From: Gammaproteobacteria bacterium
GTDB taxonomy: Bacteria > Pseudomonadota > Gammaproteobacteria > Pseudomonadales > Pseudohongiellaceae
Direction of reading: 5' to 3'
Assembly: GCA_963854365.1 (NCBI GenBank)
Contig: CAWKZI010000001.1
Coordinates: 1 to 51,260, forward strand
Length of the DNA: 51,260 bases
In this document: in pieces, positions 10,748-39,832 of the stretch
Layout of the letters: every line of letters starts with the position of its first letter
Position numbering within the stretch: position 1 is the stretch's first letter
The notes under the pieces: model-generated
Database searches by the model: none
What the model saw: the letters and a program-made list of their open reading frames with translations, nothing else
Told to the model about the DNA's origin: nothing
Translations under genes and position numbers: made by a program

Positions 10748-12361
10748 CTAGCGGGATTCCAAATAGAGCTTCTCTAAGCGATCAAGGTTGGCCTTTTTCG
10801 GATGCTCTTCAGTTCGAATTGTAGCATCGAGAATTTGGACAACATCAGATTGAGCGTCATAGCTAGGCCAATTTGGCAAGCCATCACCATTAGGGTTGCC
10901 GTCTCTAGCAAAACTAATCCAATAATCCGCAACAAGTTTTGATAAGCGCCGATCATCATCGTCCCAACCAACGCCTACTAAATCAAGATTATCGAATACA
11001 TAAGCTAAGTCACCGGAATGGTAGGCACCAAAATGACGCTGACCACCATCACCATAAAGGTCTGTTTGTTCTGGCATATAAAGTCTAAACACGGGCGCTT
11101 CCCGTGAAAAAAAATACACATAGGCATTGCTTCCGCGATCAGCAACAAGCCGTCCCCATATTCTTGCCGCGAGCAAAAAACTATTGTCCGTAGTAATGTC
11201 CTTACGAGCATCTAGTGGAGAACTTGCCAGCGAGTCTAAATAGCCACTCTTAATATTCCCTGCCGACTCACCGAAGGCGCCCTGCAAATAATCATCTAAT
11301 GCCTGCTCAGTAATTTCATCTGCTGTGTGTTGCAACCCATGATATTCATTAGCAAGGCCGCCGACCATAACCGGAATATTGTTGTGTCTACCCGATTCTA
11401 ATAAGTCATAGGGCGCATCAGGAATTACCCATCCGTCAATAATAGTAGAGCCACCTACGCCGGGAGTCGCGATAACGACTTCTGCATCTAAGGACCGAAG
11501 TTCAGCCAGGGATGCTGAACTATTGCCAGAAACACCTAGTCGGCTGGCAAAAGCTTCGCCACCCGCATGAGCTGAATTTTCCCCTTCATCAAGTCGGCGA
11601 TCTAATTTTATGCACCCCGGGGACTGGCCAATTACACCTGAAATCATTCCCTCAGTGAGCGGCGAAGACATAAGCAAGCACACATCCGTGCCACCTGCGG
11701 ATTGTCCAAAGATAGTAACCCGATCAGGGTCTCCACCAAAATTCGTGATATTATTCTGCACCCATTTTAATACTTCAACCTGATCAAGAATTCCATAGTT
11801 TCCCGATGAGTCATTCTCTGACTCTGCTGTTAAAGCAGGATGTGCAAGATAACCAAGTGAACCAAGGCGATAATTTGCAGTAATAATTACTGCACCTCGA
11901 GCCGCTAGATTTGAACCATCAAAAATTAACGGGCCACCATGACCTGCCGTGTTGCCACCGCCATGAAACCAAACCATCACCGGCAATGAAGCTGACTCGG
12001 TTTGTGCACCACTAAATACATTGAGATACAAACAGTCTTCAGAGCGCTGCAGGTTTCCCCTTGCATAGAGAGAATTATCTGGATTTCGCATTTGCCAACA
12101 AGCTGGACCAATATTATTGGCTTGTCGAACACCCGCAAACGGAATGGCAGGGGCTGGTGGCGCCCAGCGCAAATCACGCACTGGCGGCGCCGCATAGGCA
12201 ATACCTTTAAAAACATTTACCCCGGGCTGATGCGCAGATCTGCTACCTGAAAAAATACCACTGTCGGTACTGATGGTTTCGAAACTAGCCGCCATGCTTT
12301 GACCTGAAAAAAGTCCAACAATTAGTGTGCTTAGTAAAGCGGCTGAGAAATATTTAAGCAT
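10748..12361 (-). CDS. Secreted type-B carboxylesterase/lipase
   Basis: Carries the classic EDCLYLNVF signature and the nucleophile elbow FGQSAGG. The start is chosen at ATG 12361 (AGGAAA lies 9 nt upstream), which gives the signal peptide MLKYFSAALLSTLIVGLFSGQSMA. The ORF-track start at 12448 adds a non-signal extension. Confidence 0.85.
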   Translation of the reverse strand: MLKYFSAALLSTLIVGLFSGQSMAASFETISTDSGIFSGSRSAHQPGVNVFKGIAYAAPPVRDLRWAPPAPAIPFAGVRQANNIGPACWQMRNPDNSLYARGNLQRSEDCLYLNVFSGAQTESASLPVMVWFHGGGNTAGHGGPLIFDGSNLAARGAVIITANYRLGSLGYLAHPALTAESENDSSGNYGILDQVEVLKWVQNNITNFGGDPDRVTIFGQSAGGTDVCLLMSSPLTEGMISGVIGQSPGCIKLDRRLDEGENSAHAGGEAFASRLGVSGNSSASLAELRSLDAEVVIATPGVGGSTIIDGWVIPDAPYDLLESGRHNNIPVMVGGLANEYHGLQHTADEITEQALDDYLQGAFGESAGNIKSGYLDSLASSPLDARKDITTDNSFLLAARIWGRLVADRGSNAYVYFFSREAPVFRLYMPEQTDLYGDGGQRHFGAYHSGDLAYVFDNLDLVGVGWDDDDRRLSKLVADYWISFARDGNPNGDGLPNWPSYDAQSDVVQILDATIRTEEHPKKANLDRLEKLYLESR

Positions 12362-12467
12362 CCCATAAACTTTCCTAAGTCGCCGATCGATAAACACAAA
12401 ATTCGCTTTTGACTGCATGACGATTACTACCTCATTTTTGCTTAACAATTGATACTTGGCCTATGGT

Positions 12468-13757
12468 TTACTGAACGACTTCTTCAAGTCGCAATAGGGC
12501 ACCATTTGGTTCATCAATCAATACGTAGAGATATCCATCAGGACTTTGAGTAATCCCTGTGACTCGCTGTCCAAACTCTCTTAACAGACCTTCCCGTCGT
12601 ATTTCATCACCACGGCTGTTGAAAACCACCCGCTCAATATGGCCAGTGCCTGGAATTCTGCCTTCCATCATAGAACCTACAAACATATTTCCCTGCCAGC
12701 TTGGAATTTTGTCGCCACTGTAGAATGCCAGCCCTGAAGGCGCTATCGAGGGCCACCATAGAACTTCTGGATCAACGAATTCGCTACTCCAAGGCTGATC
12801 GGACACTCTGTCACCACGATACTGTCTACTATAGGAAACTATAGGCCAACCGTAATTCTCCCCTGGGCGAATAATATTGGCTTCATCACCACCTTGAGGC
12901 CCATTTTCTGTCGCCCACAAATCACCAGTTTCTGGATGAAAAGACAATCCAATTTGATTGCGGTGCCCTACCGAATAGACTTCCGGCAAATATTCTCCAC
13001 TCTCAACGAAGGGGTTGTCCTCAGGCACAGAGCCGTCTGAATTGAGTCTGAGTAATTTTCCAAAGTGATTGCTAGGGTCTTGCGCAAGATCGCCACTACC
13101 TGCGTAAACATAGGCACCACCGATAGACATCATAAGTTTATTATCAGGTGTAAACAGTAGTTGTGAGGCAGCGATACTGCGATCATAACCAGCAGCAGAA
13201 AATATCTCCTCGACATCTGTCAATTGATCTTCAATCAATCGGCCTCGCGCCAAAGTAACCTTCTGCTCTGCTTCTCCATCCACCATCACGGCCTTGTGAT
13301 AGGTCAGATAAACCAATTGATCATCATCCGGATGCAAGGCCACCGCCATCAATCCAGCACGGAAAATTTCCCCATAAACTTCAGGTACGCCACCAATATC
13401 TTGATCAAGCAAGCGACCATCTCGAACGATGCGCAATTTACCAGTGTATCTTTCGGTAATAAGTATGTCGCCATTGTCCCTAAATGCCATGGTAAAAGGA
13501 TTGGCAAGACCAAGTGCAACTGGCACGACTCGAATCTCGGGAACCTCATGCGTACTTATGATTAGAGGTTGGGCAAAAGGCGACAACTCTTCAACTTCAT
13601 CGGAAGATAATGTTACTGCAGCTGCTTCGGATGAACTAGATTCCACTACCGCAACAAGCTGCGATGATTTATCCATTTCAGTGCCCGAACCGAGCAGAAG
13701 AAATACACTAACACCAACACCGAGTACTAGCAGCCCAACTTTCAGAAAATTATTCAT
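12468..13757 (-). CDS. Exported PQQ-dependent sugar dehydrogenase (soluble glucose/sorbosone dehydrogenase family)
   Basis: N-terminal membrane anchor or signal, then the block GHRNQIGLSFHPETGDLWATENGPQGGDEANIIRPGENYGWP, which is typical of sGDH-type six-bladed propellers. Confidence 0.8.
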   Translation of the reverse strand: MNNFLKVGLLVLGVGVSVFLLLGSGTEMDKSSQLVAVVESSSSEAAAVTLSSDEVEELSPFAQPLIISTHEVPEIRVVPVALGLANPFTMAFRDNGDILITERYTGKLRIVRDGRLLDQDIGGVPEVYGEIFRAGLMAVALHPDDDQLVYLTYHKAVMVDGEAEQKVTLARGRLIEDQLTDVEEIFSAAGYDRSIAASQLLFTPDNKLMMSIGGAYVYAGSGDLAQDPSNHFGKLLRLNSDGSVPEDNPFVESGEYLPEVYSVGHRNQIGLSFHPETGDLWATENGPQGGDEANIIRPGENYGWPIVSYSRQYRGDRVSDQPWSSEFVDPEVLWWPSIAPSGLAFYSGDKIPSWQGNMFVGSMMEGRIPGTGHIERVVFNSRGDEIRREGLLREFGQRVTGITQSPDGYLYVLIDEPNGALLRLEEVVQ

Positions 13758-13799: not shown

Positions 13800-14906
13800 T
13801 TAGTGGCGATGTCCAGATCCATGCTCTGATGCAACCGCATCGTAATGCATACGAATCAGATCACGGCCGAAATCACCCATATAATCACGCCACACCAAAT
13901 GGACATGATTATTATTGTTTTGCGTATTATCGTATTCAATCAGAAATCCAGGTCCCTGCACGCGAAAATAATGACCTTCGCCACGAGCTGTACTGCCAAT
14001 CCACAAAAATTTGATACCAGCCAAACCACTTTGACGAATTACACTTAAGCGCTCATCAGCAATAGCCCTTGGTTGGGACGATGCCAATTCTTCGATAAGG
14101 CTCATCAACATAGCTTTTTGATTAGTATTCATGGAGTAATAACTGAGGCCTAAATATTCCAGCGGTCCAACTTCTTTCTCTGCCGCAGTAAAAATATCAC
14201 TTGGCGCTTCTTCATTAATTATTGCCTTACGAGCTTGTATCACATCCATCGACATTACCAGACTGCGAGCAAGATCCTCTTCAGTGGAGAGAACTCTTGT
14301 ACCTATTCTCGGGCCTTGTCTTACCTCTGCTGGATTACTACCAAAAAACTGCGGAGAACTGGATACCCCCTGCCCACCTATAAAAGTCCAATTAAATGCC
14401 AAGTGATGCCCTTCATAACGCAGCGCCCAGTCGTTTTCCAAACCAGGCTCGCCAAAAACAGTAATAAAATAGAGATCTGGGTCGCGATCAAAACGACCAT
14501 TTACTTCTATCTCCGCCAGTACCAATTCCAAACTACGAACGTTTTCTGCTTTTGCGTAACCCTCGGCGCTAAAAAAAGTTTGTATAAGTTCGCTGGCAGA
14601 CTGCTTTTGGGCATCATTCATACTCTTAAACGGAACACCTTTGCGATCCCGTGGGATAAAATGCCAATTTAATCTCTCTTCATCATTAAACTCATAGCTA
14701 GCACTGTTACGCTGAAATTGACTGAGATTAGAAAGGAAAGAGTTCGTCGCATTGACCATCTCTTCGGTCAGATCGATTCGAGCCTGGGCTGCAGCTGACT
14801 GTCCATAAGAGGAGCCAGCCATCAGCGAAATTGAGCCTGCGATCACGAAAATCGCGGCAAGTTTACTTATTGTGAATTCTTGAATCTTAAAATCAGTAGT
14901 GAACAT
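13800..14906 (-). CDS. DUF3500 domain protein (exported)
   Basis: Signal peptide, then YEGHHLAFNW and the C-terminal HYFRVQGPGFLIEYDNTQNNNNHVH pattern that I associate with DUF3500. First gene of a four-gene same-strand run. Confidence 0.65.
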   Translation of the reverse strand: MFTTDFKIQEFTISKLAAIFVIAGSISLMAGSSYGQSAAAQARIDLTEEMVNATNSFLSNLSQFQRNSASYEFNDEERLNWHFIPRDRKGVPFKSMNDAQKQSASELIQTFFSAEGYAKAENVRSLELVLAEIEVNGRFDRDPDLYFITVFGEPGLENDWALRYEGHHLAFNWTFIGGQGVSSSPQFFGSNPAEVRQGPRIGTRVLSTEEDLARSLVMSMDVIQARKAIINEEAPSDIFTAAEKEVGPLEYLGLSYYSMNTNQKAMLMSLIEELASSQPRAIADERLSVIRQSGLAGIKFLWIGSTARGEGHYFRVQGPGFLIEYDNTQNNNNHVHLVWRDYMGDFGRDLIRMHYDAVASEHGSGHRH

Positions 14907-17180: not shown

Positions 17181-18002
17181 ATGTCCTATTCTCTCCAGTT
17201 AACAAATCAAATAGTTAAACAATCCAGCACGTTGCTGTTTTACCTTATAATCTCAGCGATATACCTGCTGCCATCAGCGAATGCTCAGGAAGGCGAATGG
17301 ATTGATTTATTCAATGGTGAAAACCTTGATAATTGGCTAATTAAGTTTACTGGGCAGAACTTAGGCATAAATTTTCGCGATACCTTCCTAGTTGAAGATG
17401 GGCTTCTAACTGTTTCCTATGACAACTGGGAAAATTTTAATGGTGAGTTTGGTCATCTATTTTATGATCAAGTTTTCTCTCACTACCTCTTACGAGTGGA
17501 ATATCGTTTCACTGGCGAACAGGTAACTAATGGCCCGAGCTGGGCCTATCGTAACAATGGCTTGATGTTGCACAGCCAAGACCCACGAACTATGACCGTT
17601 AACCAGGAATTTCCTGCCTCCATAGAATCCCAATTATTGGGCGGCAATGGAAGAGATCATCGCACTAACCTTAATGTTTGTACGCCCGGGACCAATATGA
17701 TGATGGCGGGAAAGCTTATTCTTCAGCATTGCACCAACTCAAACTCCGGTACTTTCCACGGAGACCAATGGGTAACTGTGGAGATTGAGGTTAGAGGTAG
17801 CGAAACCTTAATTCATCGAATAAATGGTGAAAAGGTTTTTGAATTGACCGGCATCCAACTCGATGATCGAGACGCGGACGCTCAGGCATTGCTGGAAAAA
17901 GGCGCGTCACTAACTCTTAAAGAAGGATACGTGGCACTACAAGCAGAAAGCCATCCAACGCAGTTTCGCAAAATTGAACTTCTTCCATTAGAAGCTAATT
18001 AA
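17181..18002 (+). CDS. DUF1080 (3-keto-disaccharide hydrolase-like) exported protein
   Basis: Signal peptide, then WIDLFNGENLDNW near the N-terminus and GYVALQAESHPTQFRKIELLPL at the C-terminus. This is the typical DUF1080 layout. Confidence 0.8.
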   Translation: MSYSLQLTNQIVKQSSTLLFYLIISAIYLLPSANAQEGEWIDLFNGENLDNWLIKFTGQNLGINFRDTFLVEDGLLTVSYDNWENFNGEFGHLFYDQVFSHYLLRVEYRFTGEQVTNGPSWAYRNNGLMLHSQDPRTMTVNQEFPASIESQLLGGNGRDHRTNLNVCTPGTNMMMAGKLILQHCTNSNSGTFHGDQWVTVEIEVRGSETLIHRINGEKVFELTGIQLDDRDADAQALLEKGASLTLKEGYVALQAESHPTQFRKIELLPLEAN

Positions 18003-19888: not shown

Positions 19889-20415
19889 CTAGAAAAATCC
19901 CTTAGTAAATACCTGTTATTTACTTTAATTAGTTGTAGTGTAGATTTGAAAATCACTTAAGATAATAGCTCAATTCTAGAACGAAAACAGAGTCGATCAA
20001 TTTCAATTCATCGCCTCTGCAGTTACTAAATTTCTTGTAGAAACCGGTGGAAATGGCAATAAAAAGCACAGTTCCAACTTTTCATGTACAAAGCTCTCTG
20101 TTTTGGAATGCGTCCTTTAATATTTAGGGGTTACATTTCAATGACGAAAGTCGTCGAGGCATTGAAGTCAAAACTCTAACTTCACTTCCTTAGAGGAGTA
20201 GCATAAATAACTCCGCTTGAAGGAAGAGAGCACTCTGGGACTAAACTTTAATTAGCCTCATTGCCTCTATTACTTTGTATTTTCCACTTCAAAACTCAGA
20301 ATTATTCAGTTCTTGAGCCCCAAAATTGAACAAATATACCAGCATAACTATTAGACAAATCAACCAATTAGCATTAGTCTTTCCGATTAACAAAAATAAA
20401 CCTTTGGGTAATAAA

Positions 20416-21789
20416 ATGAAGCTCCCCACAAAGCAACTATTCGCAACACTGATGGGCTCTTTAGCACTAGCTGTTTCGGCCTCAGCGACTGCTCAAGATG
20501 CGGCTCCCACGTTCTATGCAGATGCCCTACCGGTGTTTGAGAAAAATTGCGTGGCCTGCCACCAACCTGAAGGTCCAAAAGTCGGCGGAATTTCAGCGCC
20601 TATGTCCCTGCTCGACTACGATCAAGCACGAATTTGGTCTCCCATGATCAAGAATGCTCTGATCACTGGATATATGCCTCCTTGGGGTGCCCATGAACGG
20701 CATCGCGGCGAATTCAAGGATGAACGCTACATCAACCAGAAAGAATTAGATTTACTTATCGCTTGGGTTGATGGCGGCTCACTAGAAGGTGATCCGGGAG
20801 ACGTAGCTGATAAAGATGGTCTCATAGCCAGCGGCGGAGGCACTGTCCTACCCGAGTCAGGCTGGTGGATTGGCGATCCAGACTTAGTTGTTGAATTTGA
20901 ACGCCCCGTCTACGTTGAAGACAGCATTATGGACTGGCAACCAACAGTCCAATTCCCAGTTCCTGAAGGCGCACATTCTGAACCAAAGTGGATTGCTAAA
21001 GCCGAATTAGCGCCGGGCGGATCGTGGGTACATCATATAGTTTCAAGCCACATGGGTGTAGGAGTCCCAGGACGGGGACCATTTACCTATCCTGAAGGCT
21101 GGGGAGTACTCCTGCCTGAAGACCCATTCATAACTGCCAATATTCACTACCACAAGGACCCAGGCGAAGGTACAGCCGTGACTGACCTAACCAAAGCTGG
21201 CTTTGTATTCTACGACGATGGCGACGTGATTGACCACGTAGTTGAAACTAACCTGCTTCCACACCGGGGCTGGACGATTCCTGCTGGCGATCCTAATTAC
21301 GAGGTGAACAACTCTTTTGAAGTCGAGGAAGATATCTATCTTCTCTCCATGGGCCCTCATATGCATTACCGCGGCAAAGCTATGCGTTATGAATTGGAGT
21401 ATCCAGACGGCGAGCGAGAAGTTCTTTTGTGGGTGCCAGACTACGACTTTAATTGGCAGTTCCTTTACGAATACAATGAACCAAAATTTGTTCCAGCTGG
21501 CTCCACCATGCATATGAGCTGGTGGTTCGACAATTCATCAAACAACCGTTTCAACCCAGACCCATCTAAAGATGTTGTCTACGGCCCTGAAACGACTGAT
21601 GAGATGGCCAATGCACGAATCTACTACGCACCAACCACACCTCGAGGCATAGTTGTGGGCGACGAGCTACCAGCAGATGTTTTAAAAGCTGCTCGAGATG
21701 ATGACAAGCTGCGCCGAGAAAGAGCAAATTTACTGGATCAAAGCCAAGATGATTTTTCTTGGTTAACGGAAGGTGAGAACAGCCGGTAA
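20416..21789 (+). CDS. Periplasmic fusion protein: N-terminal c-type cytochrome domain + peptidylglycine/dopamine-beta-monooxygenase-like dicopper domain
   Basis: The start at ATG 20416 gives the signal peptide MKLPTKQLFATLMGSLALAVSASATAQ. A heme motif CVACH sits in a PSCyt1-like context (FEKNCVACH...YMPPWG...LIAWVDGG). The putative Cu ligand blocks are VHHIV, NIHYH, GPHMHYRG and TDEMANARIYY. Confidence 0.7.
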   Translation: MKLPTKQLFATLMGSLALAVSASATAQDAAPTFYADALPVFEKNCVACHQPEGPKVGGISAPMSLLDYDQARIWSPMIKNALITGYMPPWGAHERHRGEFKDERYINQKELDLLIAWVDGGSLEGDPGDVADKDGLIASGGGTVLPESGWWIGDPDLVVEFERPVYVEDSIMDWQPTVQFPVPEGAHSEPKWIAKAELAPGGSWVHHIVSSHMGVGVPGRGPFTYPEGWGVLLPEDPFITANIHYHKDPGEGTAVTDLTKAGFVFYDDGDVIDHVVETNLLPHRGWTIPAGDPNYEVNNSFEVEEDIYLLSMGPHMHYRGKAMRYELEYPDGEREVLLWVPDYDFNWQFLYEYNEPKFVPAGSTMHMSWWFDNSSNNRFNPDPSKDVVYGPETTDEMANARIYYAPTTPRGIVVGDELPADVLKAARDDDKLRRERANLLDQSQDDFSWLTEGENSR

Positions 21790-21862: not shown

Positions 21863-22846
21863 ATGAAGACAGTTAGGTCAGATCAATTGAAACCGCGCCT
21901 ACTCCTTGCGCTTCCGCTGGCTCTGCTGGCTGCTCCGTTATTTGCCCAAACTTATGTGGTTGGTAGAACAGTTGATGGCCAGCCTGATCTTCAAGGCTTG
22001 TGGACTAACGACACCATTACTCCAATCGAACGCCCTGCATCTATGGAAGGAAGAGCATTCCTCTCTGAGGATGAAATCGCTTCTATGGAAGCAGGAACTG
22101 CTGAACGCAGAGAATTTTCTGATAACAATATCGTCGTCGAAGTTGGCGGCAATATCGGTGGCTATAATCAAATTTGGATGGATTCTGGAGACACAGTACT
22201 TTCTACTGGCCAAACCTCAATGATCGTCGAACCAGCCAATGGTAGAGCCCCCATTCGAGAGGAAGCCGCCGCAAGAAGAGACTATGGTTTTGCTAACGTA
22301 GAAAATCATTATATTCACCATACTGTTTGGGATCGATGCATAACTCGCGGCGTACCAGGCTCGATGCTGCCAGCAGGCTACAACAACGCCTACCGCTTCA
22401 TCCAGACTGAAGATTCCTTCACCATTATTCACGAAATGATTCACGATGTTCGTGTAATTCCTCTTAAGAAAGACGCACACATCGATTCCAAAGTTAAACT
22501 TTGGATGGGTGATTCTGTCGCTCACTGGGAAGGCGATACTTTAGTTGTCGAAACAACTAATTATAACGATCGCGGAATGATTGCCAGCAGTGGTGCCGGT
22601 GGCAGGCTAAAAGGTATTCCAGTATCTGAAGACCTACATGTTGTTGAACGTTTCACTAGAGTGAGTGAGGGCACAATTATGTGGGAAGCTAGGGTTACTG
22701 ATCCAGAAAACTATACCCAGCCATTTACCATCACAATGCCTCTCACTCAGGATGATGAATACATTATGTATGAATATGCCTGCCATGAGGGCAACTATGC
22801 TATACCGAACATTCTTAGCGCTGGCCGAGCGAATGACGCCGATTAG
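21863..22846 (+). CDS. Exported protein of unknown family (YEYACHEGNY family, copy A)
   Basis: ATG 21863 has GAGGAG 8 nt upstream. Signal peptide LLLALPLALLAAPLFAQ. It is clearly paralogous to 35705..36742, sharing the blocks GQPDxxGxW, EMIHDxRxxP, HWxGxTLVVET, ERFTR and YEYACHEGNY. Confidence 0.6.
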   Translation: MKTVRSDQLKPRLLLALPLALLAAPLFAQTYVVGRTVDGQPDLQGLWTNDTITPIERPASMEGRAFLSEDEIASMEAGTAERREFSDNNIVVEVGGNIGGYNQIWMDSGDTVLSTGQTSMIVEPANGRAPIREEAAARRDYGFANVENHYIHHTVWDRCITRGVPGSMLPAGYNNAYRFIQTEDSFTIIHEMIHDVRVIPLKKDAHIDSKVKLWMGDSVAHWEGDTLVVETTNYNDRGMIASSGAGGRLKGIPVSEDLHVVERFTRVSEGTIMWEARVTDPENYTQPFTITMPLTQDDEYIMYEYACHEGNYAIPNILSAGRANDAD

Positions 22847-22969: not shown

Positions 22970-24982
22970 CTAACCGACCGCAATCGGTGTCCACGTCTTA
23001 TGTCTCGAACTTACTTCTTCAACCGTGTGTTTACAGACTCCGGCCTTGGTGATTAGTTTGCTTTCGCAGATATCGCAACGTACACACTCTTTAAAATCGA
23101 TCACGTGTCCATGGATAGCTCCTGTAGGACAAGCATGCTCGCAGACTTTACAAACTTGGCATTGCTGCACTCGCTCTATCTTCCAAGGCGAAAGAAAGGA
23201 AGCAACGCCTAAAGCTGCGCCCAATGGGCAAGCGTAGCGGCAATAAGCCCGTTTTACGACAGTAGAAGCCAGCAAGATAACCACAAGTATCCCCCACAGA
23301 ACCGCCGAACGACTGATATAGAAAACCGTACCGAAAGGTTCAAAATACTGGAATAGACTCAGTTCACTATAGAAAATCGCCATGAGAACCAGAAAAGCCA
23401 ATACCCCATACTTTATGTAAATCGCTTTGTCATGCATCGCCTGTGGTAGTTCTTTTTGGAATCGCTTGGGTACAAAGTGTGCAATAAAGTCCTGTAAAGC
23501 ACCGAAGGGACAGAGTGAAGAACAAAATACGCGCCCCCAAAACAAGGTGGTCACTATTGTGAAAATTATAATGAGCAACAATGGCAAGTCGTTAAGAAAC
23601 ATCGATGGGCCCAATTTAATTCCGTTGGTGATATGAGAAACTGAAACGAAGCCACCATCCATCCACCCTAAATAGAACAGCGTCATAGTTAGGGCAGCCC
23701 AGCGAATAGTTGAACTCTTGCGCAGGAATGCAGTCATTACCAAAGCAAACAACACCAGTAAGGCAAAGACCTCTGCCCAAGGCGCGTTATTTATCAGGCT
23801 TGCCCATACTCCTTCCTCTCCGTAGTTCTCCGCATCATCATCAGGAATAGGCAAGAGATCAGCTGGTACCGGATTACCCTGAGCTAAAGCTAAGGGTATC
23901 GGTGGGACCGAATATTCCACTGTTTTGATGTAGTTAGAATTCGCCAAGGTATCACTAACGTTATAAAGGATATTGAACGGCTGAGAAATATCCGTCGATG
24001 GGTCCAAAACCATGGCGCCAGCAAAACGAACTCTTCCGGCTATCTTGCCATCGTCAGCAGAACCAACATAAACAAAACGACGGCGTTCAATTTGATAGAC
24101 ACTATTACCCTGCTCTATCGCCAACCTTTCCTGACGAAACGGTTGGGACGCATCGCCATCAATACCCACAAGAACCATGTTGCCATCTTTAACCCGATTA
24201 CTGGCTTCTCTGTCTGCTCGTGAATAATCATTACTACCGACTAGTAAATCTCCCAAACCATCATGCCCCATGAAAGCGAGAGACAAACGCAACTCAGTCC
24301 CATCAGATAAATCAATATCCATCTGTTTCACCATGCCGTTTTCCAACATGTCATCCCAGCTTTGTTCGGCCAGAAGCCGCAATGCTATGGCATCACTGTT
24401 AGTGGCATTCACATAGTCGGAGTCACTCAGATAGGCCTCTGCCACGCGACGCGCGGCATTTCTGACGCCTCGGGAAACAGCCCAACTAGTGATTGTGGCC
24501 CGCGAGATTCCATCAACATCCCTACCTACACGAAAGCCTTCGATAATGTTTTTTTCTTCAAACTGATTGGGGAAGCGTTCAGAATTGATAAAATCGCCGC
24601 GGATACTTTTATAGGATTCGCGATAATAGAGAACCTTGATGCCGGTGAGCATTCCGGTCAAATCTATACCTACTAAAACGTCAATTGGCGCGCTGTAGCC
24701 AACTTCTTCCGGTGGCAAGTCAGTTGTTTCAAATAAGTAACCTATCAACTCTGGCTCAGCATTATTTGGATCAGATCGAAATGCACTATATACCGGCGGT
24801 TCTCCCGCTTTCTCAGAAAAATGAGTCGCATCCGGCATGAGCTCATTCATTAGCTCAATATCCACTTCAATCAAATCAACCTGACCGTAAGCAAAGGGAA
24901 CAGCGAGAAACAAGGAGCTGAGTGAGAAAAAATAGAGAACAATTATTCGGAATCTTCGAGATAACCAACTACTGCCTGGCAT
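22970..24982 (-). CDS. NosR/NirI-family membrane protein (periplasmic FMN-binding domain, polytopic core, cytoplasmic 4Fe-4S domain)
   Basis: FMN-bind/flavinylation-type motif DVDGISRATITSW. Two membrane-flanking CX3CP motifs (FCSSLCPFG, YCRYACPLG). C-terminal ferredoxin cysteine clusters CQVCKVCEHACP and CVRCDIC. AAAGGA ribosome-binding site. Confidence 0.8.
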   Translation of the reverse strand: MPGSSWLSRRFRIIVLYFFSLSSLFLAVPFAYGQVDLIEVDIELMNELMPDATHFSEKAGEPPVYSAFRSDPNNAEPELIGYLFETTDLPPEEVGYSAPIDVLVGIDLTGMLTGIKVLYYRESYKSIRGDFINSERFPNQFEEKNIIEGFRVGRDVDGISRATITSWAVSRGVRNAARRVAEAYLSDSDYVNATNSDAIALRLLAEQSWDDMLENGMVKQMDIDLSDGTELRLSLAFMGHDGLGDLLVGSNDYSRADREASNRVKDGNMVLVGIDGDASQPFRQERLAIEQGNSVYQIERRRFVYVGSADDGKIAGRVRFAGAMVLDPSTDISQPFNILYNVSDTLANSNYIKTVEYSVPPIPLALAQGNPVPADLLPIPDDDAENYGEEGVWASLINNAPWAEVFALLVLFALVMTAFLRKSSTIRWAALTMTLFYLGWMDGGFVSVSHITNGIKLGPSMFLNDLPLLLIIIFTIVTTLFWGRVFCSSLCPFGALQDFIAHFVPKRFQKELPQAMHDKAIYIKYGVLAFLVLMAIFYSELSLFQYFEPFGTVFYISRSAVLWGILVVILLASTVVKRAYCRYACPLGAALGVASFLSPWKIERVQQCQVCKVCEHACPTGAIHGHVIDFKECVRCDICESKLITKAGVCKHTVEEVSSRHKTWTPIAVG

Positions 24983-25721: not shown

Positions 25722-27509
25722 ATGACTAATGATCATCGTTTCGCCTCCATACTGAAGCTGCTTGTCGCTGCAAGTTCTGCGGTAGCTGTTAGTAGTACCC
25801 TCGCACAAATTCTAGACTATGAAACCGTTACCGATGAGCTTTTGCAAAGCCCTCCATCCGGTGACTGGTTAAGCTGGCGTGGGCAGCCCAATAGCTGGGG
25901 TTACAGCGAGTTAGATCAAATAAACACAGGCAACGTTAATGAGCTGCAATTGGTCTGGTCCTGGGCAATGGATGATACCGGTGCCGGTCAAACCGCACCC
26001 CTTATACATAATGGTGTTATGTTTCTTCCTGGTCCACGTGGTGTCATCCAGGCGCTGGATGCGTCCTCTGGCGATCTTATTTGGGAATACCGTCCGGGAA
26101 TTACGCCGATTGTTGAAGGTTCCGGCGCTGTCGCCATAGGCTCTGTGCAACTTGGTAGCGCGGCAATGCCCGCGACAGCCTATGCAGGGGTGGGTCGTGG
26201 AGTTCAAAAGAATATCGCTATCTATGGCGATATGATTTACGCCGCTACAGAAAATGCTAGCATCGTTGGAATCGACGCACGTACAGGCAGATTAGCCTGG
26301 GAGTCAGCCACTGCTGACCCTGCTCTAGGATATTTTTATACAGCAGGGCCAATTGTTGCAAATGGCGTTCTGGTTACTGGAATCACGGGTTGTGAACGTT
26401 ATAAGAACGATGTTTGTTTTATAACCGGACATAATCCAAATACTGGCGAGGAGCTGTGGCGCACGGATACCGTCGCTCGACCCGGATCTCCTGGCGGCGA
26501 CAGCTGGGGTGATCTGCCTCTGCAGTTCAGAGCCGGCTCTGACTCTTGGGTTGCTGGGAGCTACGATCCGCAAACCAATCTAGTCTTTATGGGAACATCT
26601 CAAGCAAAACCTTGGGCCAGCGCAGTGCGCGGGACTGATGGCGAAGCCCTCTACACCAACTCAACCCTTGCATTAAACCCACAAACCGGTGAAATGAAGT
26701 GGTACTACCAGCATCTTCCCGCGGAAACTCATGACATGGATGAAGTATTTGAGACAATCCTTATTGATGTTGGTGGACGTCCAAGTCTTTTCAAAATGGG
26801 CAAGCTCGGAATTCTTTGGCAGCTCGATCGCTCTACAGGCGAAATAATAAAGGCTACTGACATCGGCTATCAGACCATTGTCAACATTAACCCAACATCC
26901 GGACAAGTTAACTATCGTGATGGCATGATGCCAAGAATCGGTCAGCAAATAGATATGTGTCCCAGCACGTCTGGTTTTAAAAGCTGGCGTGCTATGTCTT
27001 ATTCACCACAAACCAGCGCCTTATATATTCCAATAGCACTTAATTGTGAATTAGCGACCTTTGGCCCAACAGAACAAGTATTGGGCGGAGGAGGTACCGG
27101 ACCCGTGCGGCGAATAAACTACCCTCACCCTGCCTCGGATGACAATTTGGGTGAAATACTGGTTTTAGATGTCCCCAGTGGTGAAGTGAAGTGGCGCTAC
27201 CGTTCACGCGCACCGATTAACAGTGCCACACTCACAACAGCCGGAGGTTTAATGTTTGCTGGTGATTGGAACAGAAACATGTTTGCGTTTAATGCAGAAA
27301 ATGGAGATATTCTCTGGCAAACAAGAGTAACAACGTCAGCACAAGGATTCCCTATTAGCTACGAAGTTGACGGCCGACAATATGTCGCTCTCCCTGCCGG
27401 CGTCGGCGGCGCAAGTTGGTCAGGTATGCTCCCAAGGGATTTAGCTCCTGAATTAAAAACACCCAGAAATGGAAACTCGATGAATGTATTTGCCCTACCT
27501 CAAAACTAA
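25722..27509 (+). CDS. Periplasmic PQQ-dependent dehydrogenase, methanol/ethanol superfamily, atypical subtype
   Basis: 595 aa with a signal peptide. Eight-bladed propeller repeats are present (e.g. ALDASSGDLIWEY, GIDARTGRLAWE, ALNPQTGEMKWYY, VLDVPSGEVKWRY, AFNAENGDILWQT). The active-site region reads THDMDEV. There is no vicinal Cys-Cys pair. Confidence 0.85.
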   Translation: MTNDHRFASILKLLVAASSAVAVSSTLAQILDYETVTDELLQSPPSGDWLSWRGQPNSWGYSELDQINTGNVNELQLVWSWAMDDTGAGQTAPLIHNGVMFLPGPRGVIQALDASSGDLIWEYRPGITPIVEGSGAVAIGSVQLGSAAMPATAYAGVGRGVQKNIAIYGDMIYAATENASIVGIDARTGRLAWESATADPALGYFYTAGPIVANGVLVTGITGCERYKNDVCFITGHNPNTGEELWRTDTVARPGSPGGDSWGDLPLQFRAGSDSWVAGSYDPQTNLVFMGTSQAKPWASAVRGTDGEALYTNSTLALNPQTGEMKWYYQHLPAETHDMDEVFETILIDVGGRPSLFKMGKLGILWQLDRSTGEIIKATDIGYQTIVNINPTSGQVNYRDGMMPRIGQQIDMCPSTSGFKSWRAMSYSPQTSALYIPIALNCELATFGPTEQVLGGGGTGPVRRINYPHPASDDNLGEILVLDVPSGEVKWRYRSRAPINSATLTTAGGLMFAGDWNRNMFAFNAENGDILWQTRVTTSAQGFPISYEVDGRQYVALPAGVGGASWSGMLPRDLAPELKTPRNGNSMNVFALPQN

Positions 27510-27948
27510 AATACAGAAAATATTCTCAATAAGGTTAGTGAAAACTGGCACTCTCCTAGCCATGGCTTTTACCATCTCGAATTTCAGCTCAGCACAGTCC
27601 ACGAGCCCAATCCACGATGGTATTTTTAGCGATGCACAAGCAGCCCGTGGCGCCGAAGCTTACAGCGCCAACTGCGCTTCTTGCCATTCTGTCGACTTAA
27701 GAGGCAATAGTAATTCTCCCAGCTTGCTTGGTCTAAGTTTCATGTTTATCTGGGAAGGAAAATCATTAGGTGATCTTTACACAAAAATGAGCACAGAAAT
27801 GCCAACTGATCGACCCGGCATTTTGACTCAAAAGGTCTATGCAGATATTCTCGCTTTCATTCTAAAATCAAACGAATTTGCCACTGGTGATAACGATCTC
27901 ACCAGTGACACTTCATTTCTGGACGAAATCCCAATAACATCCCAATAG
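27484..27948 (+). CDS. Monohaem c-type cytochrome (probable electron acceptor of the upstream dehydrogenase)
   Basis: Heme motif CASCH, a distal Met candidate in STEMPTDRPG, and a signal peptide. ATG 27484 overlaps the dehydrogenase by 26 nt. GTG 27538 with an upstream AAGG is an alternative start. Confidence 0.8.
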   Translation: MYLPYLKTKIQKIFSIRLVKTGTLLAMAFTISNFSSAQSTSPIHDGIFSDAQAARGAEAYSANCASCHSVDLRGNSNSPSLLGLSFMFIWEGKSLGDLYTKMSTEMPTDRPGILTQKVYADILAFILKSNEFATGDNDLTSDTSFLDEIPITSQ

Positions 27949-28302: not shown

Positions 28303-28379
28303 GATGTGAACTACCTCTCCTTGATGTGAACAAGCTGTGACAATAAGTCTCTTATGTTGTTGAGATGAATTATTGTCAC
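28303..28379 (+). promoter_or_regulatory. Repeat cluster upstream of TonB-dependent receptor 1 (candidate operator or 5'-UTR structure)
   Basis: Direct 9-mers GATGTGAAC at 28303..28311 and 28323..28331, 20 bp apart. They are followed by a perfect 10-bp inverted repeat, GTGACAATAA (28337..28346) / TTATTGTCAC (28370..28379). The cluster ends 49 nt before ATG 28428. Confidence 0.3.
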
Positions 28380-28427
28380 TTCAGTCTCAGATCACGTCGG
28401 CAATTTTTATCCTTTGGAATAATACAA

Positions 28428-30581
28428 ATGATTGAGCGATACAAATCACGGACTTCTCTTATAGTGACAATCTCGGCTTTAACTTTGCTGAAATCATCGA
28501 TTGTGCTAGCCCAAACAGCTGATGACAGCTCAACTGTGACCTACCCTGCAGTCTATTTCGAACAGTATGAACCATTCTCAGTGAGTGATATGTTGGATCG
28601 AATACCGGGCATCAATATGGCCCGAGCTGCAGACTCTCAAGCAAGTGGTCCTGGCAGTTCACAGGGCTCAGACAGGCGTGGGCTGGGCTTAGGCGGCGAT
28701 CAAATTATGATTAATGGCCGACGAATTACCGGCAAAGAAAATGAAGGAAATAGCCAACTTAGCCGTATTCCTGCTAATCAAGTCGAAAGAATTGAAATCA
28801 TTCGTGGCACCTCCGGTAATCTAGACGTCCGTGGGGGTAACCAAGTTATCAATATAGTACTTACCGAATCCGAATCCCGTTCTTCTGTTGCTTATGAAAT
28901 CAGCACCGACCAATTTCATGATGGTGAGGTAAAACCTGGCGCCAAAATTTCACTTAGCGGGCAACAAGGAGCATTCGATTACTTGCTTAGTGCTGAGACC
29001 TCAACTCGTTGGGAATACAGAAAAGGGTTTGAAACTAGCATTTTGGCAGATGGCTCAAGCAACGACATGATCAACAGAGACCAGACTACGGATCAACAAC
29101 CTCTCACCCTGAGTACAAACCTAGGCTATCAGTTTTCTAACAATGACCTCGTTCATTTCAATGCCCAATTCAATCAAAGTGATGCTCCAGTAGATGAAAG
29201 ACGAAGAGTTACCAATTTTTTAACCTCACCTTCGAGCATAAATTTACAATATGATGACATCGGCTCCAAGTCTGACTTCTGGGAAATCGGGGGAGACTAC
29301 GAACACACTTTCACCAGCGGCAACCGATGGAAATCTCTTTTTATTGTAAATCGTAAGGAAGATGATCGATTAAGAGAAAGGTTTGATATCGATAACGACA
29401 GTAGTAAAGACCTCTACCTAGGTAATTTTAATCGCTATCAAGAAAGAATCCTTCGCAGCTCCTATTCGATGAACCTCAGTCAAACACAAGATCTTGAATT
29501 TGGAATTGAGCGCGCTCAAACCATCCTCGACTCTGAACTAAAGCTTGGCCTTCCAACATCCTCAGGGGCTGTATCAACCGAATTTGGAGGCTTAACGCCG
29601 ATCACCAATTCAAATGCTACCGTTGAGGAAATTCGACTTGAAGGCTTTGTGGTTCATAATTGGCAAATCAATAGTCGAATGTCTTTAGAGAGCACACTCA
29701 TTGTTGAACAATCCGAGATAAAACAATCTGGAGACATCAAAAAGAAACGCGACTTTGACTTTGTCCGGCCAAAATTAGATTATCGATTCGATATCACTCC
29801 ATCATTGCAATTCCGTGCTACCGTCGAAAAAGACGTTGCTCAATTAAGCTTCAACGATTTTACAACTAATATTAATACCTTAGATGATGATCAAAATGCC
29901 GTAGCTGGTAATCCCGATCTCAGACAGGAGCAATCTTGGAGGTATGATTTAAATCTTGAATATCGTTTCAATAATGAAAATGGCGTACTTAATACCAACC
30001 TCTTCTATCATGACCTTGAAGATGTAATTGACAAGATTGATGTTTCTACTACAACAGCAATTATATCTGCGAACGGTAACCTTGGTGATGGCGAGCGCTT
30101 TGGTGGCAGCATTGACGCAAGTTTACGTTTAGGAATATTTGATCTTCCACAACTACTAGTCACTTCTCGCGTAGACGTTGAAGATTCAAATGTTACGGAC
30201 CCCTTTCTCGATATAGAACGCCGAATTATTCGTCAGGGCCGAGGTAGATATCGATATGGCTTCCGTCATGACCTGATCCGCTTTAATCTTAATTATGGAG
30301 TTAATGTAAACGGTAGCTTCGAAGGTGGCAGCAGAATTCATGACATCGATAAAATCGAAGATTACAACAGCGATGACTTTTTGGTCGCTTTTGTCGAGAT
30401 GCAAGGCTGGGGCGGTTTGACTTACCGTTTCGAGGCAACCAATATTCATGAATCTATTCGTTGCAGAATTCGCACACGCTATATCAATGGTACAATTGGA
30501 ACAGGCACTCTGAGCGAAATAGAAGATTCTTGCAGCCATGCAGGTGAGCAGTATGGAATAAAAATTCGGGGTACTTTTTAA
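28428..30581 (+). CDS. TonB-dependent outer-membrane receptor (copy 1)
   Basis: The start at ATG 28428 gives a signal peptide ending IVLAQ. Plug motifs DMLDRIPGI, IMINGRR and IEIIRGTSG are present. A long beta-barrel ends in the aromatic terminus IRGTF. Paralogous to 42308..44506. Confidence 0.85.
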   Translation: MIERYKSRTSLIVTISALTLLKSSIVLAQTADDSSTVTYPAVYFEQYEPFSVSDMLDRIPGINMARAADSQASGPGSSQGSDRRGLGLGGDQIMINGRRITGKENEGNSQLSRIPANQVERIEIIRGTSGNLDVRGGNQVINIVLTESESRSSVAYEISTDQFHDGEVKPGAKISLSGQQGAFDYLLSAETSTRWEYRKGFETSILADGSSNDMINRDQTTDQQPLTLSTNLGYQFSNNDLVHFNAQFNQSDAPVDERRRVTNFLTSPSSINLQYDDIGSKSDFWEIGGDYEHTFTSGNRWKSLFIVNRKEDDRLRERFDIDNDSSKDLYLGNFNRYQERILRSSYSMNLSQTQDLEFGIERAQTILDSELKLGLPTSSGAVSTEFGGLTPITNSNATVEEIRLEGFVVHNWQINSRMSLESTLIVEQSEIKQSGDIKKKRDFDFVRPKLDYRFDITPSLQFRATVEKDVAQLSFNDFTTNINTLDDDQNAVAGNPDLRQEQSWRYDLNLEYRFNNENGVLNTNLFYHDLEDVIDKIDVSTTTAIISANGNLGDGERFGGSIDASLRLGIFDLPQLLVTSRVDVEDSNVTDPFLDIERRIIRQGRGRYRYGFRHDLIRFNLNYGVNVNGSFEGGSRIHDIDKIEDYNSDDFLVAFVEMQGWGGLTYRFEATNIHESIRCRIRTRYINGTIGTGTLSEIEDSCSHAGEQYGIKIRGTF

Positions 30582-31440: not shown

Positions 31441-32343
31441 ATGCTCAATAAGAATTCAGCTTTATTTCTATTACTAAGCCTTACTTTCTTACCGAGCCAA
31501 GTTTTATTAGCACAGCTCTCGGACCGCGCCTCCTGGACAGCAACAGTTCAGAATGATTTTCGAGTCATTCCTAATATAACCTATCAGCAAGCTAACGGTA
31601 TCGAGCTAAAGATTGATGTTTATCAGTCACGCGATAACGACGGGCCTGCTCCTACATTCATTTACTATCATGGTGGTGGTTGGGTTCGTGGCTCGAAAGA
31701 GGCTAACGTGCTGCGAATACTTCCTTATCTCGAGCAGGGCTGGTCAGCGGTGAATGTACAGTACCGTCTAGGAAATGTTTCATTGGCCCCGGCTGCGGTA
31801 GAAGACAGTCTTTGTGCATTGCGCTGGGTGGCAAGGAATGCCGAGGAATATGGCTTTGATAAAGACCGTCTAGTTGTGTCAGGAAATTCAGCCGGGGGGC
31901 ACCTAGCTCTTGTAACAGGAATGTTACCAGCAGATAGTGACCTAGGCAGGCAGTGCTTGGGGAGCGAATCTCCCAAGGTCGCTGCAATTGTAAATTGGTA
32001 TGGCATTACTGATGTTGCCGACCTACTCGATGGTGAGAATCAGAAATCCTATGCCGTACGTTGGATGAGCTCCATGCCAGATCGCAATGAAATTGCCGCA
32101 CGCATCTCTCCTCTCAATTTTGTTAATTCTGAACTGCCACCAATTATTACAATTCACGGTGATGCTGATCCAACCGTACCCTACGATCATGCAGTGCAAC
32201 TACACAGTCTATTAGACCAGACAGAGGTCACCAATGAATTGGTGACCATCCCCAATGGTGGTCATGGTGGATTTCCTGCCAATGAAATGCTCAGAATCTA
32301 TGGTCGAATTTTTCAGTTCTTGAACGAAAATGTTACGCACTAA
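31441..32343 (+). CDS. Secreted alpha/beta hydrolase (hormone-sensitive-lipase-like esterase, fold-3)
   Basis: Strong ribosome-binding site AAAGGAGAG and a signal peptide. Oxyanion motif YYHGGGW, nucleophile elbow SGNSAGGHLAL, and HGDADPTVP. Confidence 0.85.
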   Translation: MLNKNSALFLLLSLTFLPSQVLLAQLSDRASWTATVQNDFRVIPNITYQQANGIELKIDVYQSRDNDGPAPTFIYYHGGGWVRGSKEANVLRILPYLEQGWSAVNVQYRLGNVSLAPAAVEDSLCALRWVARNAEEYGFDKDRLVVSGNSAGGHLALVTGMLPADSDLGRQCLGSESPKVAAIVNWYGITDVADLLDGENQKSYAVRWMSSMPDRNEIAARISPLNFVNSELPPIITIHGDADPTVPYDHAVQLHSLLDQTEVTNELVTIPNGGHGGFPANEMLRIYGRIFQFLNENVTH

Positions 32344-39393: not shown

Positions 39394-39409
39394 GAGAATT
39401 CCTCTGAAT

Positions 39410-39832
39410 CTATTCTTCTGTGGGTCGAGTTTCTTTAGGGCCAATATTTAAGATATGTGCAACAATTTGCCAAATTGTTTGATCATCAATCGTATCTTTA
39501 AATGGAGGCATTTCCAAACCAGCCCCAAATTTTATACTACGAAATATATGCAATGGCGAATCACCATAAAACCATGTATCGGGCGAAGTAAGATCAGCAG
39601 CAATGAAATCAATATTCGCCAAAGCGCGCCCATCAGCGTCGTGACAAGACTGGCAGTTTATAAGGTAGTAACTCTTACCTCTGGCTGCCTCAGATTTAGA
39701 ATAAGCCTGGGGGGCAATTTCCGTGGGCATTTCAGCAGCTAAAGATGTTTGGTAAATGAAGGCCAATAATAAAGGGGAAACTCCGGCAGAAAACCGCAGA
39801 AGATAGCTCATTATTTGTAGAGAAAATTTCAT
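39410..39832 (-). CDS. Monohaem c-type cytochrome, exported
   Basis: Signal peptide, heme motif CQSCH and the Met-containing block GLEMPPF. Its stop codon lies 17 nt upstream of the ThDP enzyme start. Confidence 0.8.

Follow-up and report, generated by a model that had tools for sequence, protein, structure and literature searches.

A 51,260-nt stretch of DNA from a Gammaproteobacteria bacterium of the family Pseudohongiellaceae (positions 1 to 51,260 of contig CAWKZI010000001.1, assembly GCA_963854365.1; hereafter, the window) harbors at 20416–21789, on the plus strand, a gene for a predicted secreted protein in which a cytochrome c is followed by a region resembling the copper monooxygenases PHM and DBH. 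The open reading frame (ORF) starts with ATG and encodes 457 aa plus the stop codon. An alternative TTG at 20326 would extend the product to 487 aa; the ATG was preferred because homologues of 453–462 aa begin at ATG. An earlier note on this DNA, made from the letters alone, had proposed such a fusion on the basis of several short strings, and all of these were found in the ORF and in the order given: FEKNCVACH (residues 41–49, with CVACH at 45–49), YMPPWG (86–91), LIAWVDGG (114–121), VHHIV (205–209), NIHYH (242–246), GPHMHYRG (313–320), and TDEMANARIYY (394–404). The amino-terminus (residues 1–26, MKLPTKQLFATLMGSLALAVSASATA, 20416–20493, plus strand as for all parts of the gene given below) looks like a Sec-type signal peptide ending in A-T-A and lacking a lipobox Cys, as assigned by eye. 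The amino-termini of the homologues were variable in sequence, hydrophobic, and ended in A-x-A.

Cytochrome domain and PHM/DBH-like core

Residues about 30–125 (20503–20790) correspond to a class I c-type cytochrome domain. The Pfam model PF00034 (Cytochrom_C) matched residues 40–119 with 22.5 bits against a cut-off of 21.3, and the AlphaFold2 (AF2) model of the protein showed helices in this region at 33–44, 68–84, and 108–119. Conservation was evaluated in an alignment of 105 sequences with 31–80% identity to the window protein, a mean column identity of 35%, and 37 invariant columns out of 457. The heme attachment motif C45-V-A-C48-H49 (20548–20562) was invariant in 105/105 sequences; the protein contains only two cysteines, both in this motif. 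The stretch M87-P-P-W90 (20674–20685) was likewise invariant (105/105) and aligned, weakly (E 1.2), with “RMPGFG” of cytochrome c6 (2v07), so that M87 is the probable axial (sixth) heme ligand as judged from the alignment. Only the general models PF00034 and PF13442 matched the cytochrome region. The likeness to planctomycete-type cytochromes c noticed earlier could not be confirmed, as the PSCyt models (PSCyt1, PF07635) were absent at E ≤ 1 among 31 family members. A weak match in the PDB was obtained with the tethered cytochrome c of the copper nitrite reductase 2zoo (E 0.03–0.05). The domain is followed by a flexible linker (residues 126–149, 20791–20862) of low predicted local distance difference test (pLDDT) values, below 50 at residues 137–142, whose sequence and length differ between homologues.

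Behind the linker, two β-sandwich domains could be delimited, an amino-terminal one at residues about 150–290 (20863–21285), equivalent to the CuH domain of PHM by Foldseek and hhalign, and a carboxy-terminal one at residues about 291–410 (21286–21645), equivalent to the CuM domain of PHM by PF03712, Foldseek, and hhalign. The claim of a PHM/DBH-type core was borne out by a fold search with the AF2 model, by profile alignment, and by the invariance of the ligands across a deep family. The AF2 model, built on the 105-sequence family alignment, had a mean pLDDT of 85.9 and a predicted template-modelling (pTM) score of 0.81, and the 10-residue blocks holding the ligand residues reached mean pLDDT values of 87–97. 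Comparison of this model with the PDB using Foldseek showed that matches 1–31 were all PHM or human DBH (probability 1.00, E 3e-12 to 5e-9, template-modelling score 0.5–0.6 normalised to PHM), and the next matches were viral jelly rolls with E > 1e-5. The alignments extended over about 305 columns, and therefore both β-sandwich domains were matched.

Searches of the PDB sequences with HMMER, using the single protein or a close-clade profile, gave weak cytochrome c matches only and no PHM; hence, a deeper alignment with hhalign together with the fold search was needed to reveal the link. Alignment of the family with the rat PHM core (sequence of PDB chain 4e4z_A) by hhalign gave 94.5% probability and an E-value of 7.5e-8 over 235 columns, with family-profile columns 183–431 (residues about 172–408 of the window protein) set against PHM 32–281. 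In this alignment, H206 and H207 (21031–21036; VHH against VHH) fell on PHM H107 and H108, and H244 (21145–21147; IHY against VHY) fell on PHM H172, these three being the CuH ligands of PHM. Similarly, H315 and H317 of H315-M-H317 (21358–21366; PHMH against VHTH) fell on PHM H242 and H244, and M397 of the D-E-M motif (21604–21606; DEM against DEM) on PHM M314, these being the CuM ligands of PHM. The six candidate ligands, which had been placed earlier by comparison with PHM motifs, were thus each set on their PHM counterpart, and all six were invariant in 105/105 sequences. In addition, Q348 of W347-Q348 (21454–21459, both invariant) paired with PHM Q272, and position 242, which is Asn in the window protein and Gln in 77/105 sequences, paired with PHM Q170; both PHM glutamines are second-shell residues.

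The residues found to be invariant in 105/105 sequences included C45, C48, H49, M87, H206, H207, H244, H315, H317, and M397, and further R319, W347, Q348, Y351, N373, and E396. All four motifs were kept in 95 of the 108 family ORFs of ≥350 aa in the loci fetched for the family survey described below. H96 was His in 44/105 sequences only, and H93, H212, and H246 were conserved in the close clade only, being extra to what the Pseudohongiellaceae-type clade of the window protein shares with the wider family. The carboxy-terminal tail (21646–21786), with a charged helix at residues 420–436 in the AF2 secondary structure, was kept in the close clade, and some relatives carry EF-hand, esterase, GDSL, DUF2911, or DUF3471 domains at this place. 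Taken together, the profile alignment and the structural model support the assignment of the protein as a bacterial PHM/DBH-type dicopper core covalently joined to a c-type cytochrome.

Family size, architecture, and relation to known enzymes

More than 1036 homologues were obtained in an initial search. The top 120 were 69–97% identical to the window protein, came mostly from Pseudohongiella, Pseudohongiellaceae, and other gammaproteobacterial metagenome-assembled genomes, and were labelled “hypothetical protein” or “mono/diheme cytochrome c family protein.” When 1.84 billion cluster representatives (clusters at 50% identity) were searched exhaustively with a profile, 12,522 of them matched at E ≤ 1e-3; of these, 6,710 reached E ≤ 1e-10 and 1,501 reached E ≤ 1e-30. 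The matches usually covered the cytochrome plus both β domains. The architecture of the 150 best representatives was classed by motif counts together with a home-made hidden Markov model (HMM). CxxCH and PHxHxRG were both present in 122 of them, and the fusion to cytochrome c is hence the rule in the family. PHxHxRG occurred without CxxCH in 7/150 representatives, which are 138–415 aa long and mostly match from their first residue; these look like fragments.

The short architecture of the window protein was found in 64 of the 122 full-length representatives. The other 58 carry an amino-terminal extension, which in 56 is an AhpC/TSA-like thioredoxin-fold domain nearest to ResA, DsbE, and TlpA. 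In 90% of the cases, a monothiol CPxA replaces the CxxC of this domain, and its reading as a peroxiredoxin or a CxxC oxidoreductase was rejected on account of the CPxA and of the resemblance to ResA, DsbE, and TlpA. Such long-architecture relatives include P0124, P0156, P0162, P0215, P0258, and about 50 more; P0124 itself consists of two complete units fused in tandem.

Regarding the spread of the fusion, a survey of the kind the earlier note had suggested detected at least 569 loci in a scan of one genome per species. Roughly two thirds of the 80 fetched loci belonged to Acidobacteriota, which together with Planctomycetota were the main sources; further loci came from Gemmatimonadota, Nitrospirales, Sumerlaeota, Armatimonadota, Hydrogenedentota, Verrucomicrobiota, and Gammaproteobacteria. 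Two to six family members stood in a row in 18/86 loci. Head-to-tail arrays of four to six diverged paralogues were seen in the Acidobacteriota loci L023, L054, L082, L085, and L091, and the array of L091 (at least five members) is followed by a gene for a B12-binding radical SAM protein.

Some family members were already labelled with the Pfam copper domain in precomputed annotations. NCBIfam had no model for the window protein or for eight diverse relatives, and the literature search found no paper on a bacterial fusion of cytochrome c with a PHM-like core; the remark that no characterised example of this architecture was known is thus in line with both sources. Both domains are of known kinds, and it is their fusion for which neither a curated family model nor a publication was found. 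Within this very large and uncharacterised family, the window protein is one of the gammaproteobacterial members with the short architecture.

Among known enzymes, the closest structural comparison was with PHM, the catalytic core of PAM (1PHM, 1OPM, 3MLL), which has the same two-domain β-sandwich core (Foldseek E 3e-12) and shares with the window protein all six copper ligands, Q272, and the D-E-M motif at only 13–16% identity. The window protein is bacterial and predicted to be periplasmic, and it carries a fused cytochrome c where PHM uses diffusible ascorbate. Unlike PHM, it has no disulfides, since both its cysteines carry heme, and unlike PAM, it has no attached PAL domain. The residues that contact the substrate in PHM were also compared; R240 and Y318 of PHM bind the substrate carboxylate and N316 binds the substrate backbone. 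R240 aligned with G313 (column M/T/G/Y/L) and Y318 with R401 (column F/W/R/Y), and N316 aligned with N399, which is Asn in 18/105 sequences only, all of the close clade. These peptidylglycine-binding residues are not conserved, and therefore the window protein, judged from the alignment, is a member of the PHM/DBH structural and ligand class but not a PHM orthologue.

DBH, tyramine β-monooxygenase, and MOXD1 (4ZEL) share the same core fold and ligand set, at Foldseek ranks 2 and 4 (E 4e-12 and 9e-12). DBH is also similar in having an extra amino-terminal domain ahead of the core, a DOMON domain in DBH and a cytochrome c in the window protein. DOMON domains bind heme b in other proteins; Pfam detected no DOMON domain in the window protein or in 31 members, the amino-terminal domain being a cytochrome c. 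The window protein has no dimerisation domain, and its substrate pocket bears no comparison with theirs. Those copper nitrite reductases that have a tethered cytochrome c, such as 2ZOO from Pseudoalteromonas haloplanktis, share the design of a class I cytochrome c as a built-in donor, the cytochrome domain being the one weakly similar to that of the window protein. They differ in having cupredoxin copper domains (type 1 plus type 2) that are unrelated to the PHM fold, a carboxy-terminal cytochrome, and nitrite reduction as their activity. The bacterial entries named “mono/diheme cytochrome c family protein,” “thiol-disulfide isomerase,” and “peroxiredoxin” represent the actual family, with homology over the cytochrome and both copper domains; the relatives of redoxin–cytochrome c–Cu2_monoox_C type possess the amino-terminal ResA/TlpA-like domain that the window protein lacks.

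Genomic neighborhood

The gene order in the window is as follows: a gene for an M3 oligopeptidase (minus strand), an intergenic region of 527 nt, the fusion gene (plus), a gap of 73 nt, a gene for a protein of 327 aa (plus), and a gene for a NosR/NapH-like protein (minus), followed by genes for a pyrroloquinoline quinone (PQQ) dehydrogenase and a cytochrome c (both plus) and then a TonB-dependent receptor. The 527-nt region (19889–20415), which separates the divergent M3 peptidase gene from the fusion gene, is AT-rich. It showed no Rfam match and no convincing promoter consensus, Rfam gave no match across the whole window, and a promoter/terminator scan returned fewer sites than in shuffled sequence.

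The directly downstream gene (21863–22846, plus strand) codes for a predicted secreted protein of about 327 aa and has a strong ribosome-binding site, GAGGAG, 8 nt ahead of its ATG. A gene of about 330 aa lies directly after the fusion gene in L003, L087, L088, L089, and L090 as well, its homology to the window protein of 327 aa being confirmed by sequence for L003 only (75% identity); it is possibly an operon partner of the fusion gene in the close clade. The protein had no match in Pfam, NCBIfam, or the PDB, profile search included. A search for its family gave more than 8000 matches. The protein has a conserved Cys159 and a conserved Cys307-His308 within a YACHEGN motif, and its AF2 model, from a shallow alignment, was of low confidence (pLDDT 38.9).

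The NosR/NapH-like membrane redox protein is encoded at 22970–24982 on the minus strand. Pfam and NCBIfam showed a periplasmic FMN_bind domain, two Fer4_5 domains, and a carboxy-terminal 4Fe-4S domain, an architecture like that of flavinylated membrane redox proteins (PMC8238504). With the NosR equivalog model NF046105 it remained far below the cut-off, scoring 165.7 bits against 1000, and no nos genes were found among the window ORFs scanned. The earlier note had pointed to this gene as the next but one after the fusion gene. That position is correct; the gene is, however, on the opposite strand and lies near the fusion gene only in the close clade (≥66% identity). It was located within 10 kb in eight distinct close-clade loci plus the window, 0–5 kb downstream and always on the opposite strand with variable genes between, and it was not within 10 kb in the close homologues L005, L006, L008, and L010 or in the distant loci. 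In the positive close-clade loci and in the window, a PQQ dehydrogenase was always present within about 6 kb of the NosR-like gene. In the window, this is the PQQ β-propeller dehydrogenase at 25722–27509, assigned with Pfam along with an overlapping cytochrome c gene at 27484–27948 (both plus strand), and the same two-gene module occurs in L003. NapH-like flavinylated proteins have been found clustered with PQQ alcohol dehydrogenases in 172 genomes, and a function as a link between the dehydrogenase and the electron transport chain was proposed for them (Méheust et al., 2021; PMC8238504). Hence, the PQQ dehydrogenase and its cytochrome c are the more likely partners of the NosR-like protein; the role with the dehydrogenase is the more economical explanation, and a link to the fusion protein is uncertain.

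A survey of the neighbours, also suggested earlier, revealed no family-wide partner, either by tblastn of the window proteins against 86 loci or by clustering of 3518 ORFs, in which only the gene itself, ORFs overlapping it in another frame, and, in 12 loci, PQQ dehydrogenases formed recurrent clusters. The fusion gene is usually solitary, without pathway genes around it. A gene for a Prx5-type peroxiredoxin stands divergently upstream in L001, L087, L089, and L090. This gene was considered as a split redoxin domain and was rejected, being of Prx5 type, without an evident signal sequence, and absent from the window; its product is read as cytoplasmic from the sequence.

At 48916–49932 (minus strand), the window encodes an NHL-repeat β-propeller with 38% identity to rat PAL over 160 residues (E 2e-28). 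PAL (peptidyl-α-hydroxyglycine lyase) acts after PHM in eukaryotic amidation. H585, H690, and R706 of PAL aligned with identical residues, Y654 aligned with a His, and the stretch expected to hold the third zinc ligand, H786, reads Q-E-G by eye, with no computed alignment behind this last reading. The gene is 27 kb from the fusion gene and on the opposite strand, with unrelated genes between. In L011, tandem family members have a PAL-like gene at a distance of about 7 kb, and PAL-like neighbours in 1–2 of the 86 loci correspond to about the chance expectation by a rough estimate. The propeller is regarded as a lead only.

Possible activity, its alternatives, and the wider window

It is moderately probable that the fusion protein acts in the periplasm as a non-coupled dicopper monooxygenase, structurally of the PHM/DBH class, and is reduced through its tethered heme. 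Following Sec export and heme attachment, the class I cytochrome c (His49/Met87) would be reduced by the periplasmic electron-transfer pool, the possible donors being a soluble cytochrome c and a membrane protein linked to quinol. The heme would pass single electrons to the His3 site (H206, H207, and H244, the CuH equivalent), from which they would reach the His2Met site (H315, H317, and M397, the CuM equivalent), where O2 would be activated and an oxygen atom inserted into a C–H bond of the substrate. In such a scheme, for which we infer copper occupancy, the direction of the electrons, the O2 chemistry, and monooxygenation, the tethered heme would take the role that ascorbate has in the eukaryotic enzymes. 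PHM and DBH of eukaryotes take their electrons from ascorbate, a compound that most bacteria do not synthesise, and the potentials of class I cytochromes c with His/Met ligation are suitable for the reduction of type-2 copper. The replacement of ascorbate by heme is a reasonable reading of the conserved fusion, and the tethered cytochrome c that feeds the copper centres in some copper nitrite reductases provides a precedent for a built-in donor. The substrate would presumably not be peptidylglycine held in the manner of PHM, because the carboxylate binders of PHM are absent and an invariant R319 lies two residues after the second CuM His.

Several observations weigh against this assignment. 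Pfam profile searches, proposed earlier as a check, bore out the cytochrome c, which scored above its cut-off, but not fully the copper domains. PF03712 (Cu2_monoox_C) matched residues 304–408 to positions 42–139 of its 157 with 20.3 bits (E 4e-4), which is below the cut-off of 23. The match was equally weak and sub-threshold in all 31 close homologues (best E 3e-5), and the distant relatives P0128, P0135, and P0156 exceeded the cut-off with 24.0–28.0 bits. PF01082 (Cu2_monooxygen), the model of the amino-terminal copper domain, gave no match at E ≤ 1 among 31 members; this domain was recognised only by hhalign and Foldseek. The root-mean-square deviation in Foldseek was about 10 Å for most PHM entries, which suggests that the inter-domain angle of the model differs from that of PHM. 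Moreover, no neighbour conserved family-wide points to a substrate or pathway, and the literature search found no experimental report on any family member. Finally, about half of the relatives carry the monothiol thioredoxin-fold domain, which hints at thiol or peroxide chemistry outside a simple monooxygenase picture.

A role other than hydroxylation was also considered, in which the same fold and metal sites would serve an oxidase, a peroxygenase, or a peroxidase-type reduction of O2, H2O2, or an oxyanion such as nitrite for detoxification or signalling. Such a role would suit the AhpC/TSA- or ResA-like domain placed before the cytochrome in 56/122 full-length representatives, the divergent Prx5-type gene of four close loci, the gene usually standing alone, and the PDB entries among the Foldseek matches that show PHM copper sites binding nitrite, azide, and CO. 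The fused domain, however, has neither a peroxiredoxin motif nor CxxC, the Prx5-type protein without an evident signal sequence would be cytoplasmic and its gene is missing from the window, and arrays of two to six diverged paralogues fit substrate diversification better than a single small molecule. To our knowledge, monooxygenases are the only proteins in which a His3 site is known to be paired with a His2Met site across a cleft, and we regard a non-hydroxylating activity as unlikely. It is very unlikely that electrons run in reverse, the substrate being oxidised at copper and the heme c passing electrons to the respiratory chain with the NosR/NapH-like protein as membrane acceptor. Fused cytochrome c domains are electron outlets in quinohemoprotein alcohol dehydrogenases and the window holds many genes for periplasmic dehydrogenases and cytochromes c, but we know of no dehydrogenase with PHM-type copper sites, and a Met thioether ligand such as the conserved one here is characteristic of CuM sites that activate O2. 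For a NapH-like protein, a role in collecting electrons from periplasmic oxidases has been put forward (PMC8238504); the NosR-like gene was nevertheless missing in the more distant family loci.

A less remote possibility, though still not a very likely one, is that the NosR-like protein is the dedicated membrane donor of the fusion protein, the two forming one module as NosR is required for N2O reductase. Its gene lies 0–5 kb downstream in the window and in L001, L003, L007, L087, L088, L089, and L090, and its position beside the fusion gene is at least as stable as that beside the PQQ dehydrogenase. The invariably opposite strand, the variable unrelated genes inserted between, and the loci with no NosR-like gene within 10 kb (four close homologues and the distant loci) speak against a module. 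The positive loci all belong to one related clade, for which shared synteny is a sufficient explanation, and the constant proximity of a PQQ dehydrogenase together with the NapH-like/PQQ alcohol dehydrogenase clusters of 172 genomes (PMC8238504) points to the other partner. A two-gene bacterial PAM, in which the fusion protein would be a true peptide- or acyl-glycine α-hydroxylating enzyme and the NHL propeller its lyase, amidating periplasmic peptides, was considered highly improbable. The matched PAL residues of the propeller, the PAL-like gene of L011, and the M3 oligopeptidase gene divergently upstream of the fusion gene would be in keeping with it; the distance and opposite strands of the two genes, the near-chance frequency of PAL-like neighbours, the change of PHM R240 and Y318 to G313 and R401 with N316 kept in the close clade only, and the His and Q-E-G found in place of PAL Y654 and H786 are not. 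Just as hard to credit is a non-catalytic copper core that buffers or delivers copper, or transfers electrons, on a cytochrome. Periplasmic copper-handling proteins are common and the neighborhoods examined offered no substrate or pathway context, but conservation is strict for both PHM-type sites, along with the second-shell residues Q348, position 242, R319, W347, Y351, and N373. This conservation, held across 12,522 clusters, argues for catalysis, and tandem paralogue arrays are typical of enzymes.

If the fusion protein is indeed a monooxygenase reduced by its own heme, a wider reading follows, which falls slightly short of an even prospect: the family would form a class of copper monooxygenases of the bacterial periplasm, very large and so far unstudied, that work on respiratory electrons via a built-in heme c and not on ascorbate, its paralogue arrays would have diversified to many substrates, and this prokaryotic stock may have been the origin of animal PHM and DBH. 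Recalcitrant dissolved or soil organic matter and periplasmic peptides would be candidate substrates under such diversification. In animals, PHM and DBH make amidated hormones and noradrenaline; they serve as the textbook examples of non-coupled dicopper monooxygenases, and as far as is known, the mechanistic work on them was all done on eukaryotic ascorbate-dependent enzymes. A bacterial enzyme with its own heme would be a new kind of oxygenase in the periplasm and, as a self-contained system, would permit optical monitoring of the delivery of electrons to CuH, and it would allow a test of the long-debated transfer step from CuH to CuM. If catalytic, the family may also provide an overlooked route for organic-matter oxidation or peptide modification; it is very large in the sampled soil and aquatic lineages and occurs in tandem arrays. 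The family also bears on a bacterial origin of the animal neuropeptide and catecholamine enzymes.

Considered as a whole, the window is densely packed with periplasmic scavenging functions, among them dehydrogenases, cytochromes c, and esterases, along with TonB-dependent receptors. Four PQQ β-propeller dehydrogenases are encoded (25722–27509, 32759–34747, 40090–42114, and 49941–51170) along with a GSDH-type dehydrogenase (12468–13757) and TonB-dependent receptors at 28365–30581 and 42308–44506. The hydrolases include a tannase/feruloyl esterase (6281–7867), a carboxylesterase (10748–12448), a BD-FAE esterase (31441–32343), and a PhoD phosphatase (47099–48691), and a DUF3500 protein (13800–14906) and a DUF1080-type protein (17181–18002) were also identified. 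A gene for a thiamine-pyrophosphate enzyme of 675 aa (37417–39444, minus strand) overlaps by 35 nt with the upstream gene for a CBB3-type cytochrome c of 140 aa (39410–39832) on the same strand, a pairing that looked unusual.

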